Made by a program: the position numbers and the translations under genes
In this document: positions 177 through 34,445 of the stretch, piece after piece
Layout of the letters: the number at the start of each line of letters is the position of its first letter
How positions within the stretch are numbered: the first letter of the stretch is position 1
Notes under the pieces: model-generated
What the model was told of the DNA's origin: nothing
Database searches by the model: none
The model's input: the letters and a program-made list of their open reading frames with translations, nothing else
Assembly: GCA_018829985.1 (NCBI GenBank)
Contig: JAHJSU010000052.1
Location: 1-56,142, forward strand
Length of the DNA: 56,142 nt
Direction of reading: 5' to 3'
Source of the DNA: Elusimicrobiota bacterium
GTDB lineage: Bacteria > Elusimicrobiota > Elusimicrobia > Elusimicrobiales > UBA9959

Positions 177-761
177 ATGCAAAAGAACTTATCTGAAAAT
201 TCCGCACTTAAAGGTCCGGGCAAAGCGTTAAAATTCGCGCTTATGGGCTTTGTTGCCTTAAGCATCGGTGCTGTTGTGTATAAAATGGCCGCAGCTCCTG
301 ATAAAACCGCTGCGGCTCCTGCTGAAGCGGTTGCTGCCGTAGAGGAACCGGCCAAACCTCCGGTAAAGCCCGGGCCAAAAGTTCCGGCGACCCCCAAAGA
401 ACCGGTTAAGTCCGCGGCTGAAGCCAAAACAGCCTTGGTATATTATTTCCACACCAACACGCGCTGTTCTTCCTGTAAGGCGATAGAGGCCTATACGCGC
501 GAAGCGGTGGAGAAAAACTTCACTTCCGATTATAAAGGGTGGAAAGTGATTTTCAAAGGCGTAAACGTCGATGAAGGGGCTAACGCGCATTTTGTGCAGG
601 ATTACCGGCTTAATTCCAAGTCCGTTGTGGTCCAGAAGTTCTCCGGCGATAAAGCCCTTAAATGGGTAAAACTGGAAAAAGTATGGCAATTGCTCGGCGA
701 TAAAAAAGGGTTTATGAATTATGTCGCGGATGAAACACATAAATTGCTGGACGCGAAATGA
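177..761 (+). CDS. membrane-anchored thioredoxin-like CxxC protein (ArsF-like partner of the downstream permease)
   Basis: 194-aa ORF with an N-terminal TM helix (FALMGFVALSIGAVVY), an Ala/Pro-rich linker, then a YYFHTNTRCSSCKAIE CxxC motif. The stop overlaps the next start (ATGA at 758-761). The ArsF-like label is from memory of NCBI family naming. Confidence 0.6.
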   Translation: MQKNLSENSALKGPGKALKFALMGFVALSIGAVVYKMAAAPDKTAAAPAEAVAAVEEPAKPPVKPGPKVPATPKEPVKSAAEAKTALVYYFHTNTRCSSCKAIEAYTREAVEKNFTSDYKGWKVIFKGVNVDEGANAHFVQDYRLNSKSVVVQKFSGDKALKWVKLEKVWQLLGDKKGFMNYVADETHKLLDAK

Positions 762-1450
762 ACGCTGAATTCTGGGCGGCAGTTCTGACGGCCTTGTGGA
801 CAGGGGTTATCACCTCGGTAAGCCCCTGCCCGCTGGCCACCAATATAGCCGCGCTTACCTATATCTCAAAGCATTCAGGTTCTCATCGCCTGGCGGTGCT
901 GGCGCACGGCGGGCTTTACGCCCTGGGCCGGGCGCTGGCCTATATTATCATCGGCTTCCTGCTGGTAAAAAGCCTGCTTAGCGCGCCGTCATTTTCGTTC
1001 TTTATGCAGAAATACGGCAACCAGGCCCTGTCGCCCATACTGGTTCTCGCCGGCATGTATATGCTGGATATGTTCGGCCGGGGTTTTATGGGTTTTAATG
1101 TGTTTGATCTGTCGAAGTTCAAGGTCAAAGGGGGGGCCGCTCCCTCCCTGTTCATGGGCTTCATCTTTGCGCTGGCCTTCTGCCCCATCTCCGCCGCGCT
1201 TTATTTCGGCGTAATAATCCCGCTGGCTGCAAGAAACTCTGCGCCATTCTCCCTGCCTCTGCTTTACGGCATTGGCACAGCCCTGCCGGTTATCGGCCTG
1301 GCAATAATTCTGGACTTTGGGCTTAAGAAAGTTTCCGCCGTAACCGGACTGGCCGCAAAGTTTGAAAGATTCGCAAGACCAGTCACCGCATGGGTGTTCA
1401 TCGCTTGCGGCGTGTATCTGGGGCTTAAAGATATTTTCGGAATTATTTAG
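758..1450 (+). CDS. CcdA/DsbD-type integral membrane protein, ArsG-like putative organoarsenical permease
   Basis: 230 aa, about six hydrophobic segments, with an SPCPLATNIAAL motif in the first helix typical of the CcdA/DsbD family. Translationally coupled to the upstream CxxC protein and located in the ars cluster. Confidence 0.65.
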   Translation: MNAEFWAAVLTALWTGVITSVSPCPLATNIAALTYISKHSGSHRLAVLAHGGLYALGRALAYIIIGFLLVKSLLSAPSFSFFMQKYGNQALSPILVLAGMYMLDMFGRGFMGFNVFDLSKFKVKGGAAPSLFMGFIFALAFCPISAALYFGVIIPLAARNSAPFSLPLLYGIGTALPVIGLAIILDFGLKKVSAVTGLAAKFERFARPVTAWVFIACGVYLGLKDIFGII

Positions 1451-1458
1451 GAGGGTAA

Positions 1459-1944
1459 ATGAAAAAGATACTTTTTCTCTGTACCGGGAATTCCTGCCGC
1501 AGCCAGATGGCTGAGGGCTGGGCTAAGGCATTATTGGCCGGGAAAGTGGAGGCGTTCTCCGCGGGCACGAGGCCCGGAAGGGAAGTGGACCCCCGCGCGG
1601 TGAAGGCTATGGCGGAGGCCGGGTTGGATATTTCCGGCCAGCGGCCGAAGAGCCTGGAGATCTTCAAGGACAAAGATTTCGACCTGGTGGTGACGCTCTG
1701 CGACAAGGCTATGCCAGTGCCGCACAAGGGCTATGCCCATCAGGCGGCCAACGCGCACACGGCATGTCCCGCTTATTGGGGAAAAGGCCGGAAAATGCAC
1801 AACGGCTTTGACGACCCTGCGACAGTAGCGGGAAAAGGCCCCTCTGAAGAAGAGGCTATGCCGCACTACCGCCGGGTGCGCGATGAGATAAAAGAGTTTG
1901 TACTGCGGCTGCCTGAAATACTGGAACAAGGAGAATTAAAATGA
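1459..1944 (+). CDS. arsC: arsenate reductase, LMW-PTPase/thioredoxin-coupled type, with an atypical 15-aa insert between the second and third Cys
   Basis: AGGAGGG SD upstream. [19 protein letters not shown]5R P-loop, VVTLC...ACP, GFDDPA and RRVRDEI motifs align to Staphylococcus/Bacillus ArsC from memory. Confidence 0.9.
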
Positions 1945-2993
1945 GCGGTATAAGCGAAAAACTTTCATTCCTGGACCGTTACCTTACATTGTGGATCTTC
2001 CTGGCTATGGGGGCCGGGGTGGCCGCCGGCTGGCTCTGGCCCTCGGCTGTCGCGGACTTCAACGCGGCGTCCAGCGTGGGGACCACTTCCATCCCCATAG
2101 CCATAGGCCTTATACTTATGATGTATCCGCCGCTGGCCAAGGTTAAATATGAGGAGATGCACAGGGTTTTCGCCAATAAGAAGGTGCTGCTGCTTTCGCT
2201 GGCGCAGAACTGGCTGGTGGGGCCCGTCCTGATGACGGCGCTGGCCGTAATCTTCCTCAGGGACAAGCCGGAGTACATGGTGGGGCTTATCTTGATAGGC
2301 CTCGCCCGCTGCATAGCCATGGTGATAGTCTGGAACGACCTGGCCCGCGGCGACAGGGAATATTGCGCGGGGCTGGTAGCCTTTAACTCGGTGTTCCAGG
2401 TGCTGTTCTTCTCCGTTTACGCTTATTTCTTCGTCACGCTGGCGCCGCGCTGGCTGGGGCTGGAGGGCGCCGTGGTTAACATAACCATGGGGGAAATAGC
2501 AAAAAGCGTTTTCATATATCTTGGTATTCCTTTTATAGCCGGCATCCTGACCAGGTTTACGCTTATCCGGGCCAGGGGCAGGGAGTGGTACAGCGCAAAG
2601 TTTATACCGGTTATAAGCCCGCTTACCCTGGTGGCGCTGCTTTTTACGATAGTGGTGATGTTTTCTATAAAAGGGGAAAACATAGTGCAGGTGCCTTTTG
2701 ACGTGGTGCGGGTAGCCATACCCCTGCTGATCTACTTCACGCTGATGTTCTTTGCTTCTTTCTACATGAGCAAAAAGGCGGGCGCCTCCTACGAGGAATC
2801 CGCCACGCTGTCTTTTACCGCCGCCTCCAATAACTTCGAGCTGGCCATAGCGGTTGCGATAGCCACCTTCGGCATCGGCCATGGGGCCGCTTTCGCGGCG
2901 GTAATAGGGCCTTTGGTGGAGGTGCCTGTGCTGATAGCGCTGGTGAACGTGTCCCTATGGATAGGCCGGCGGTGGTTTGCCAAACCCGCCTGA
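1941..2993 (+). CDS. acr3: arsenite efflux transporter, ACR3 family
   Basis: 350 aa, polytopic. Start overlaps the arsC stop (ATGA). The N-terminus [20 protein letters not shown] and overall pattern are typical of Acr3. Confidence 0.9.
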
Positions 2994-23840: not shown

Positions 23841-24096
23841 TTAGGGAAACTGTAATAAACCACCAAGGACACAATACCTGCGTAGGTGCCGTATCAGGGC
23901 CTATGGCCAACAAACGGCCAAAGTATAGAACGGAAAGGAAAGACAATATCAACTTTGTGGCCTTTGTGGTTAAATTGAAAAAAGTCCCTGCCTGCCGGCA
24001 GGCAGGCGCCCGAAGGGCGTTGATTTATAAATAGCCGCAGCCCCTTGGGCTGCCCGGTAAAGAGAATTAGGAGACAAATTAAAGGGGTTGAAAAAT

Positions 24097-28545: not shown

Positions 28546-28645
28546 CCTTAATCCTTTAAATAAAAAACCCCCTAATATTCTTATCAGGAGGTTTTAGCCC
28601 GTTTCGGATATTATTTCCAGCCTAGGGCTATGCCCATCAGACGGC

Positions 28646-28903
28646 CTAAACCTGGGGATAGACGCTGATCTGTTTTTTTCCGCGTTTTATCCACTCAAAT
28701 TTCACCATGCCCGTCACTTTTGAGAATAGGGTGTCATCGGAGCCTCTGCCCACGTTGATGCCCGGCAGGAATTTGGTGCCTCTCTGCCTGACCAGAATTT
28801 CGCCCGCGTTAACGCTCTGGCTGCCGTAGCGTTTTACGCCGAGGCGCTGGCCCTGGCTGTCTCTTCCGTTAGTTGATGAACCTTGTGATTTTGATCCTGC
28901 CAT
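28646..28903 (-). CDS. rpmA: 50S ribosomal protein L27
   Basis: [35 protein letters not shown]. Confidence 0.93.
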
Positions 28904-33879: not shown

Positions 33880-34125
33880 CGAATTACAGGGCTATGCCGG
33901 CGCCGTATCATATCAGAGGCAGGTAGAGGTGAAGGTTCAGGTAGAGAAGGTCGGCGTAACCGCTTCCCCCGTGCTTTACCTGTGCCTATGCCTTTACCTG
34001 CTTTATAGCCTATGGCCATCAAACGGCCATCAGACGGCCCGCGCCGGCAAAATCGGCGTAATCCTTCAAGGCTATGCCAGTGCCGCATCAAGAGCTATGC
34101 TCTTCAAGCGGCCAAAAATAGCTGT
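33880..34125. repeat. mosaic element: GGCTATGCC..ATCA direct flanks, AGGTAGAG-word hairpin (33918-34001), CCTATGGCCATCAAACGGCCATCAGACGGCC block
   Basis: Read directly in the rpsU-dnaG spacer. The flank at 34067-34087 is identical to arsC nt 1704-1724. Confidence 0.8.
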
Positions 34126-34338: not shown

Positions 34339-34357
34339 AGTATCACCACCTTTAAGT

Positions 34358-34438
34358 TAGGGTATAGGGTAGAGGGGAGAGGGTAGAGTTATAAGGAACT
34401 CCTTAACCCTATACCCTAACCCCTCTACCCTATACCCT
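34358..34438. repeat. GGGTAGAGG/GGGTATAGG-word hairpin, near-perfect ~38-bp stem, loop GTTATAAGGAACTCCTTAAC
   Basis: Lies between the HIT stop (34446) and the rpsU start (34338). Confidence 0.9.
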
Positions 34439-34445
34439 GCTGTTA

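Follow-up and report, generated by a model that had tools for sequence, protein, structure and literature searches.

The closest described counterparts of the element reported here are the Rickettsia palindromic elements (RPEs; PMC10969869, summarizing Ogata et al. 2000, 2002). These are dispersed palindromic repeats that occur between genes and also in frame inside unrelated housekeeping genes, always in one reading frame, where they add a peptide at sites compatible with the protein fold (PMC10969869). In this study, we analyzed contig JAHJSU010000052.1 of an Elusimicrobiota bacterium (GenBank assembly GCA_018829985.1; positions 1 to 56,142 of the forward strand, hereafter the window). The arsenate reductase gene arsC of this contig contains a 48-nt stretch that is very probably an inserted copy of a dispersed, hairpin-forming repeat unit. 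The source genome is an uncultured groundwater Elusimicrobia bin of 3.53 Mb in 362 contigs, 96% complete. As with RPEs, the in-frame hosts of the unit are unrelated proteins, namely ArsC (in three lineages), a NuoI-like protein, HemA, NadD, and the ribosomal proteins L4 and L29. However, RPEs measure approximately 100-150 bp and are confined to Rickettsia, whereas the unit has 46-49 nt and occurs in free-living groundwater Elusimicrobia. Unlike RPEs, it uses a CAA target, its common form breaks the reading frame, so that copies inside genes are found repaired (by -1, by +2, or by a deletion in the flank), and it has struck the same codon of one enzyme repeatedly. A preliminary description of this DNA had drawn the parallel with RPEs. 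The parallel fits the behavior of the family, with in-frame copies in at least four other well-supported genes of the source genome (NuoI-like, HemA, NadD, and an epimerase-like fragment) and in L4 and L29 of other genomes, but not its ancestry: length and host set the unit apart from the RPE families, its sequence being judged without direct comparison to RPE consensi. In its behavior, the family is an instance of the RPE phenomenon, with a much smaller, apparently unrelated element in a free-living phylum. New relative to RPEs are the frame-breaking master form with its several repairs, one form of which is seen only in open reading frames (ORFs), and the recurrent capture by one redox loop.

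Other small repeats share part of these properties. Repetitive extragenic palindromes (REPs) and REPINs, associated with RAYT (PMC2817692), are also short, GC-rich, imperfect palindromes with compensatory stem changes, present in tens to hundreds of copies and often clustered or in tandem; moreover, a sister form of the unit (type B) has GTAG just 5' of its long hairpin, and the genome has several Y1 genes. However, REPs are extragenic by definition, and the unit flanks none of the 37 Y1 loci sampled. The HUH elements (IS200/IS605 with their small derivatives, and IS91) lack terminal inverted repeats and have subterminal hairpins and a short fixed target repeated at the far end, as does the unit (PMC13181058). 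IS91-type elements cause no target duplication and combine a fixed short target with subterminal palindromes, and in IS801 and IS1294 the sequence GTTC is found both at terIS and as the target (PMC13181058). The unit differs in being only 46 nt long and free of genes, and CAA at both of its ends also fits a target duplication. The hairpin motifs of the Ssn nucleases (GIY-YIG family) flank the nuclease gene (PMC11893778), which the unit does not do at the three stand-alone GIY-YIG genes of the source genome. Intragenic enterobacterial repetitive intergenic consensus (ERIC) elements and MITEs (transposable elements of the miniature inverted-repeat type) with open frames (Delihas 2007; Coxiella QMITE1, PMC5896051; Anabaena MITEs) are small non-autonomous repeats that occasionally form in-frame fusions with their hosts. 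They have terminal inverted repeats and lengths of 100-300 bp, whereas the unit has no inverted ends and is several times smaller. The inserts subject to translational bypass, in gene 60 of phage T4 and in Magnusiomyces mitochondria (the 'byp' elements), may have a length that is not divisible by three and usually contain stops. They resemble the unit as short, hairpin-forming mobile inserts in coding sequence, but every genic copy of the unit has a net length that is a multiple of three and is free of stops, which argues for ordinary translation and not for bypass.

The inserted unit and its empty sites

ArsC of the window matched the Pfam family LMWPc (9e-23), and its closest solved relative is the ArsC of Bacillus subtilis (1JL3). 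The alignment with 1JL3 contains one large gap, of 15 residues, exactly between Cys82 and Cys89 of the B. subtilis enzyme. The equivalent residues here, Cys81 and Cys103, are spaced by 21 residues, compared with six in 113 of 116 aligned homologues, and they flank the insert. The unusual spacing and its location in the redox loop had both been noticed in the preliminary description, and they held on alignment. Thioredoxin-type arsenate reductases (TIGR02691) are the best named match of the protein, with a score of 110.4 bits, under the curated cut-off of 174.3.

In every arsC relative examined, close or distant, the site is empty and reads tgcga-CAA-ygc; the gene of a genome from the same genus and a metagenomic gene of 86% identity are among them. 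The gain is thus lineage-specific. The net gain in arsC is exactly 45 nt, or 15 residues, with CAA at both ends, and the insert lies at a CAA spanning an Asp-Asn codon pair. For the intergenic copy (34067-34115), the same-genus genome has an empty site in its orthologous spacer, ..aatccttCAAaaat.., where CAA occurs once, and the net gain is exactly 46 nt. A third pair comes from a NuoI-like ferredoxin gene on another contig: the empty site of the same-genus genome is gcCAAcgccgtaagc, and the gene of the source genome has a 49-nt unit and lacks one G just 3' of it, giving a net gain of 45 nt. Thus CAA is single in all three empty sites and doubled at the ends of the filled ones. In tandem arrays of the unit, adjoining copies share CAA and the period is 46-47 nt. 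The primary event thus adds 46 nt at a CAA and shifts the reading frame. In a NuoI-like gene of another genus (G015:C13:18746-19294, locus L050), the CAA site that carries the unit in the source genome is occupied by a decayed insert of 42 nt (KAAPVPAPAPVEGRPAAP), which may be either an old copy or another independent event.

The arsC insert belongs to a family that is abundant in the source genome. With nhmmer, 1704-1751 matched the family model over positions 1-49, at E 3.6e-13. An exact second copy of the 21-mer at 1704-1724 stands at 34067-34087, with none expected by chance, and the 22-mer at 1728-1749 matches 28625-28646, beside the rpmA stop, with one mismatch. The core motif GGCTATGCC occurs eight times in the window against 0.55 expected. 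The 21-mer and 22-mer matches had been reported in the preliminary description as parts of a roughly 45-nt piece of a mosaic repeat, together with related blocks near 23896, 33888, and 34000, which are real partial or variant copies. The in-frame net gain of 45 nt stands, but the mosaic does not. Most genomic copies of the 21-mer (at most two mismatches) continue into the same second half, so the matches at 34067 and 28625 are two halves of one unit, which in arsC occupies 48 nt (1704-1751).

The consensus of the unit is CAAGGCTATGCCAGTGCCGTATCAGGnGCTATGCnCATCAAACGGCCAA. Its canonical form has 49 nt and consists of CAA, a 3-bp hairpin, a two-tier hairpin, and CAA; the arsC copy is this form minus one T (..GCCGCA-CAAG..). 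Among the 41 simple full units of the genome, 37 have 49 nt, two have 48, one has 46, and one has 51. The profile search of the genome with nhmmer gave 183 matches, 60 at full length and approximately 120 partial. Beyond this genome, 14 of the 41 related genomes, representing 8 of 17 genera, contain the family with a nearly unchanged sequence, the richest holding 56, 25, 34, 22, and 13 copies. In the arsC copy, the outer stem of hairpin 2 (GCCGC/GCGGC) pairs 1719-1723 with 1744-1748, and the inner stem (GGGC/GCCC) pairs 1728-1731 with 1735-1738; family-wide, the outer stem is GCCGY/RCGGC and the inner NNGC-TAT-GCNN. Across copies, 97.8% of the cells in the stem columns are paired, compared with approximately 30% after displacement of the partner column, and compensatory changes, such as GCCGT..ACGGC versus GCCGC..GCGGC, occur at 5 of 12 pairs. 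The unit has no terminal inverted repeats, since its ends, GGCTATG.../...ACGGC (or CAAGGC.../...GGCCAA), are not inverted copies of each other. No Rfam family reached its gathering score in the window, and the repeat-rich spacer gave no credible match. Readings as attC, dif, or CRISPR-like sequence were dropped, there being no GTT/AAC core sites or spacers. We also considered whether the unit is built to be coding-neutral, its consensus having no stop in any forward frame but being closed in each of the three reverse frames, as in 0.5% of shuffles; only 26 of the 41 copies keep this property, which is thus not conserved.

From these results, we regard it as very probable that 1704-1751 is an inserted copy of a small, non-coding, hairpin-forming dispersed repeat whose genic copies have passed an in-frame sieve.

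Frame repair, recurrence in arsC, and the enzyme

It had been proposed in the preliminary description that the repeat entered arsC without breaking the frame. The frame of arsC is indeed kept, but the canonical unit would break it (+46), and the arsC copy is a special 48-nt form. When this T-less form was scanned in one genome per GTDB species and in JGI metagenomes, it was found at seven sites, all inside ORFs and all in one shared frame, KAMPVP(H/Y)K.(Y/N)AHQ(A/T)A; no intergenic copy was found in either collection. The sites are the arsC genes of the window and of Elusimicrobia bacterium RIFOXYA12_FULL_51_18, ribosomal proteins L29 and L4 at their C-terminal tails (both identities supported by Pfam), the N-terminal tail of a 600-aa protein, and two sites of an epimerase-like fragment. 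The second of the two 48-nt copies of the source genome is likewise inside an ORF. A region-limited search for other proteins with the peptide KAMPVPHK gave only two candidates (coarse index).

Loss of the T is one of three routes by which the frame has been restored. In a third arsC (homologue P0039), a 49-nt unit with an AC duplication gives a net gain of 48 nt, and in the NuoI-like gene, the repair is the 1-nt deletion in the flank. In all genic copies, the net length is a multiple of three, no stop occurs, and the orientation is forward; on its reverse strand, the unit has a stop in each frame. Pfam domain envelopes extend across the in-frame family inserts in three proteins of the source genome, namely HemA, NadD, and the NuoI-like protein. 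Three different repairs and a form restricted to ORFs are what translation plus selection predicts, unlike an insert that is skipped or excised. We infer from these sequence patterns that genic inserts are probably translated and that selection retains only frame-preserving versions at tolerant surface sites.

Two of these hosts and one further ORF deserve separate mention. HemA (C91:5638-7782) and a NadD-HD fusion (C166:5734-7017), both encoded by essential genes, have approximately 45-49 extra residues in frame inside their Pfam domains, made of composite repeat sequence that includes parts of the unit. The epimerase-like host of a 48-nt copy (C153:1638-2096) was set aside as a sound functional case, since it is a truncated, internally deleted paralogue of the full-length gene on C357. 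Several rearranged copies of this ORF (loci L039-L043, L046, and L054-L072) were observed on short contigs of another bin and of metagenomes with joints at the unit, as if units mediated the recombination.

Among the 120 best ArsC homologues, three carry an insert, all at the same nucleotide: ArsC of the window, P0039, and P0041 (the RIFOXYA12 enzyme, found with one and the same allele on 17 contigs). In a maximum-likelihood tree of 77 ArsC sequences, calculated with the insert columns left out, three changes are needed, and the well-supported (starred) branches alone force this number. The closest relatives without an insert share 86% identity with the window protein and 91% with P0039. The P0039 unit is a different variant (49 nt + AC, with a GGCC inner hairpin), and therefore at least two of the arsC events are independent. 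The inserts of the window and of RIFOXYA12 are identical at 46 of 48 nt and have the same inner hairpin, in genes approximately 64% identical. The RIFOXYA12 genome contains 20 units, and the 19 outside arsC all belong to a different subtype (GCC-TAT-GGC, 49 nt). Among these homologues, the long loop thus occurs in P0039 and P0041 besides the window, both from Elusimicrobia, with the repeat present in 20 copies in the one genome checked (that of P0041); this distribution, together with the three events in the tree, strengthens the reading as insertion. We conclude that the same arsC nucleotide has been filled separately in at least two, probably three, lineages. CAA sites in the right phase number 3-9 per arsC gene, and the context CGN|CAA is common to six of nine coding targets. 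It is possible that the recurrence reflects a selection sieve, with one tolerant loop, or a target preference.

Residues 82-89 of ArsC form a redox segment that switches from helix to loop, whereby Cys89 exits a hydrophobic pocket and travels approximately 10 Å, and Lys88 and Cys89 lie at the center of the interface with thioredoxin (PMC6193951). In ArsC of the window, the catalytic residues Cys8, Arg14, Cys81, Cys103, and Asp119 are all kept. The nucleophile Cys8 corresponds to Cys10 of the B. subtilis and pI258 enzymes, and Asp119 aligns with Asp105 of known thioredoxin-coupled ArsC. The P-loop columns C8-TGNSC-R14-S15 are invariant across the 116 homologues and agree with the CX5R(S/T) pattern that thioredoxin-coupled ArsC requires. 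An AlphaFold2 model built with the 116 homologues has a predicted TM-score of 0.81, a core with confidence (pLDDT) above 90, and residues 84-102 below 50, so that the insert appears as a low-confidence loop on a confidently modeled ArsC core; modeling had been suggested in the preliminary description. With this model, the top Foldseek matches were the ArsC enzymes of pI258, B. subtilis, and D. indicus (target TM 0.76-0.89).

The insert may form a flexible loop at the surface, giving the two cysteines a longer tether and leaving the P-loop, both cysteines, and the fold untouched. The native residues adjoining Cys103 (NAHTA) are kept, and the insert would add a flexible tether to them. A chain-entropy estimate, (22/7)^1.5, suggests that the local thiol concentration would fall approximately 5- to 6-fold; the predicted effect is a slower ArsC whose activity is not abolished.

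Mobilization of the unit and alternative explanations

Among the Y1, GIY-YIG, and IS91-like candidates checked, we found no cognate transposase for the unit, and the genes bracketed by pairs of units are ordinary housekeeping genes with no candidate mover. We sampled 37 Y1_Tnp loci with their flanks in 17 genomes (nine loci in the source genome and 28 in relatives), and neither nhmmer nor a core-pattern scan detected a unit within 1.5 kb of any of them. RAYT/IS200 was rejected as the mover on this result; the RAYT-like genes of the source genome have GTAG-REPs of their own, different from the unit. One RAYT-like Y1 gene (C348, reverse strand, approximately 136-681) was observed to carry its own GTAG-REP (GGCAAAGCAAGCTTTGCGACTAC) three times in frame (KAKQALRLQILA repeats), and the same REPs also flank it. 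In type B of the unit, a GTAG-type tetranucleotide stands at the hairpin foot (GCGTAGGT|GCCGTA); type A, to which the arsC copy belongs, has CCAG or GCAG there, and the two types differ in the 5' mini-hairpin (CAATACCTGCGTAGGT... in type B).

GIY-YIG/Ssn nucleases were rejected as well, since the three stand-alone GIY-YIG genes have no unit nearby and are flanked by another GC-rich hairpin family (TCCGCCTGAGGCGGACCCGCCGGACTGTTTGGCGGG). That family flanks a GIY-YIG gene at tRNA-Ser, is present on contigs C48, C78, C213, and C223 and in a cassette (C320:41745-41951), and is also nested in some units, between CAT and CAG of the internal loop of the long hairpin. An intact transposase gene of the IS91 family (Y2, rolling-circle) lies at C3:4371-5624, behind a tyrosine-recombinase fragment; the family was absent from 14 of 14 control genomes, and solo copies of the end palindrome of the C3 element were seen on contigs C46, C84, and C310. 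A link between this end palindrome and the unit was rejected, the resemblance having p of approximately 0.002-0.009 before correction for 12 tests and being absent in the second copy of the end. The layout of the unit, with a short fixed target repeated at the far end, subterminal hairpins, and no inverted ends, most closely resembles that of HUH-type elements (IS200/IS605, IS91, REP/RAYT); we consider mobilization of this type rather unlikely.

Copying without a dedicated transposase, by template switching or slippage during replication that the 3-nt CAA microhomology and hairpin-stalled polymerases would prime, could account for the lack of an enzyme among the candidates checked, the tandem arrays that share CAA with periods of 46-47 nt, and the length variants of -1 and +2 nt. 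However, the boundaries are identical in approximately 60 copies, the sequence is conserved over at least eight genera, the covariation of the stems implies recognition of structure, and 3 nt of homology is very little for a templated event; we consider this mode decidedly unlikely. Horizontal transfer of ars operons is frequent, and a single origin of the arsC insert, followed by many precise losses or by passage between arsC genes through recombination or transfer, could explain why the window and RIFOXYA12 share the rare 48-nt form and its inner hairpin and why, of the 20 RIFOXYA12 copies, no other belongs to the subtype of the one in arsC. Against this stand the three changes forced by the tree, the different variant in P0039, whose 91%-identical sisters lack the insert, and the flanks, which differ right up to the insert with no visible conversion tract; moreover, an ancient insert would be expected to diverge like the gene (dS 0.6-1.2). 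A single origin of all three inserts is very unlikely. As the bin is fragmented and rich in repeats, a copy might also have been misjoined into arsC during assembly. This is extremely improbable, because a single read is much longer than the unit, the insert is spanned with no differences in independent assemblies of three groundwater runs (two studies), and two other public arsC genes are filled at the same site.

It could further be argued that a genuine insert has inactivated ArsC, the frame having been kept by chance or through polarity on the overlapping acr3, and that the cell manages with no arsenate reduction or with its first reaction steps only. The insert lies in the segment that presents Cys89 to thioredoxin (PMC6193951), residues 84-102 are not placed by AlphaFold2, and the score falls below the NCBIfam equivalog cut-off (110 versus 174 bits). 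However, insert-bearing arsC is intact in three lineages, with every catalytic residue in place, and three different frame repairs occur in the family. The ratio of nonsynonymous to synonymous substitution rates (dN/dS) of arsC, compared with three relatives that lack the insert, is 0.12-0.18, which equals the value for a pair of insert-free genes, although such pairwise values average both lineages and are blind to recent relaxation. No second arsenate reductase was recognizable in the genome, which encodes no glutaredoxin-type (PF03960) protein and whose other LMWPc protein is YwlE-like, and the same repeat is tolerated in the essential L4, L29, and HemA. Inactivation is unlikely, and we lean slightly toward an ArsC that retains function. 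Apart from the limit of dN/dS just given, several points weigh against our interpretation of an inserted repeat filtered by selection for frame and function: a 3-bp target duplication explains the two terminal CAA copies as well as insertion beside a CAA does; length selection alone does not explain the repeated loss of the identical T; a frame-preserving insert may still kill the enzyme, given its position in the helix-to-loop, thioredoxin-contact segment; transfer from arsC to arsC is possible for the window and RIFOXYA12 pair, since the RIFOXYA12 copy is the sole member of its subtype there; and the Y1, GIY-YIG, and IS91 results above gave no mover.

Taking the insertion of a selectively filtered repeat as the preferred reading, we tentatively raise a broader possibility, which may well prove wrong: the T-less 48-nt form could be a sub-lineage that persists, and perhaps spreads, only in ORFs, moved by an unlinked single-strand nuclease or by none, and its repeated landing between Cys82 and Cys89 could have yielded a working ArsC with a 21-residue spacer. 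If so, the length of the ArsC redox switch would not be critical for the disulfide cascade. The Cys82-Cys89 segment is thought to be a tuned helix-to-loop switch and thioredoxin docking site, and the three lineages that have more than tripled the tether between the second and third cysteines offer a natural test of the mechanism. The colonization of genes in frame by selfish palindromes, known mainly from obligate intracellular Rickettsia, extends on the preferred reading to free-living, uncultured groundwater bacteria with a unit approximately one third the size of the Rickettsia elements. The three frame repairs and the ORF-restricted form provide unusually direct sequence evidence for the translation and selective sieving of inserts. 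Annotation is also affected: the insert drops ArsC below the curated cut-off and inflates the domains of HemA, NadD, the NuoI-like protein, L4, and L29.

Feature coordinates and associated repeats

The features of the window are listed in the table. The gene arsC is part of an ars operon, in which the start of acr3 overlaps the arsC stop (ATGA).

Table. Coordinates, strand, and basis of the features of the window
Feature	Position	Strand	Basis
Complete repeat unit, 48-nt form (T22 absent), CAA at each end, inside arsC	1704..1751	+	nhmmer, empty sites, unit alignment
Hairpin 1 of unit, GGC-TAT-GCC, 3 bp	1707..1715	+	fold; middle pair covaries GC/CG
Two-tier hairpin 2 of unit, loop TAT	1719..1748	+	fold
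Canonical 49-nt intergenic copy	34067..34115	+	nhmmer, filled/empty alignment
Sister type B unit, 50 nt: CAATACCTGCGTAGGT + same long hairpin + CAA	23872..23921	+	unit comparison
Partial copy, second half of unit, abutting stop of L27 gene (28646-28903, minus strand)	28623..28648	+	match, nhmmer
Partial and degenerate copies in mosaic spacer (33887..34029)	33887-33910, 33986-34029	+	nhmmer
arsC, thioredoxin-type arsenate reductase, low-molecular-weight phosphatase fold, 161 aa	1459..1944	+	ORF, Pfam, NCBIfam, alignment
P-loop C8-T-G-N-S-C-R14-S15	1480..1503	+	sequence reading, 116 homologues, 1JL3 alignment
Cys81 codon (Cys82 equivalent)	1699..1701	+	alignments
Cys103 codon (equivalent of resolving Cys89)	1765..1767	+	alignments
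acr3, arsenite efflux	1941..2993	+	TIGR00832 5e-135, ORF list
ArsF-like gene, upstream of arsC	177-761	+	NCBIfam NF040494/NF040495
ArsG-like permease gene, upstream of arsC	758-1450	+	NCBIfam NF040494/NF040495

The reverse complement of the 3' part of the commonest unit variant, GGCCGTCTGA, presumably equals ten bases of a DNA-uptake-sequence dialect of Neisseria. The arsC copy (1739-1749) reads GGCCGCCTGA, other unit variants also break the match, and the likeness is probably a coincidence.

Some units are associated with larger repeats. In approximately ten cases, the unit forms the loop within a larger palindrome whose heptamer arms are GGTTCAC/GGTTCAG and whose ends are inverted (GTAACTACTCAGGTT...; contigs C110, C189, C190, C191, C222, C258, C279, C301, C330, and C351), and therefore part of the family spreads as a passenger. 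Within the window, an 86-nt palindromic element at 34354-34439 (gttagggtatagggtagagg...ccctctaccctataccct) is missing from the orthologous site of the same-genus genome, which has dozens of copies at other places; this element therefore represents a second mobile family with a clean filled/empty pair.

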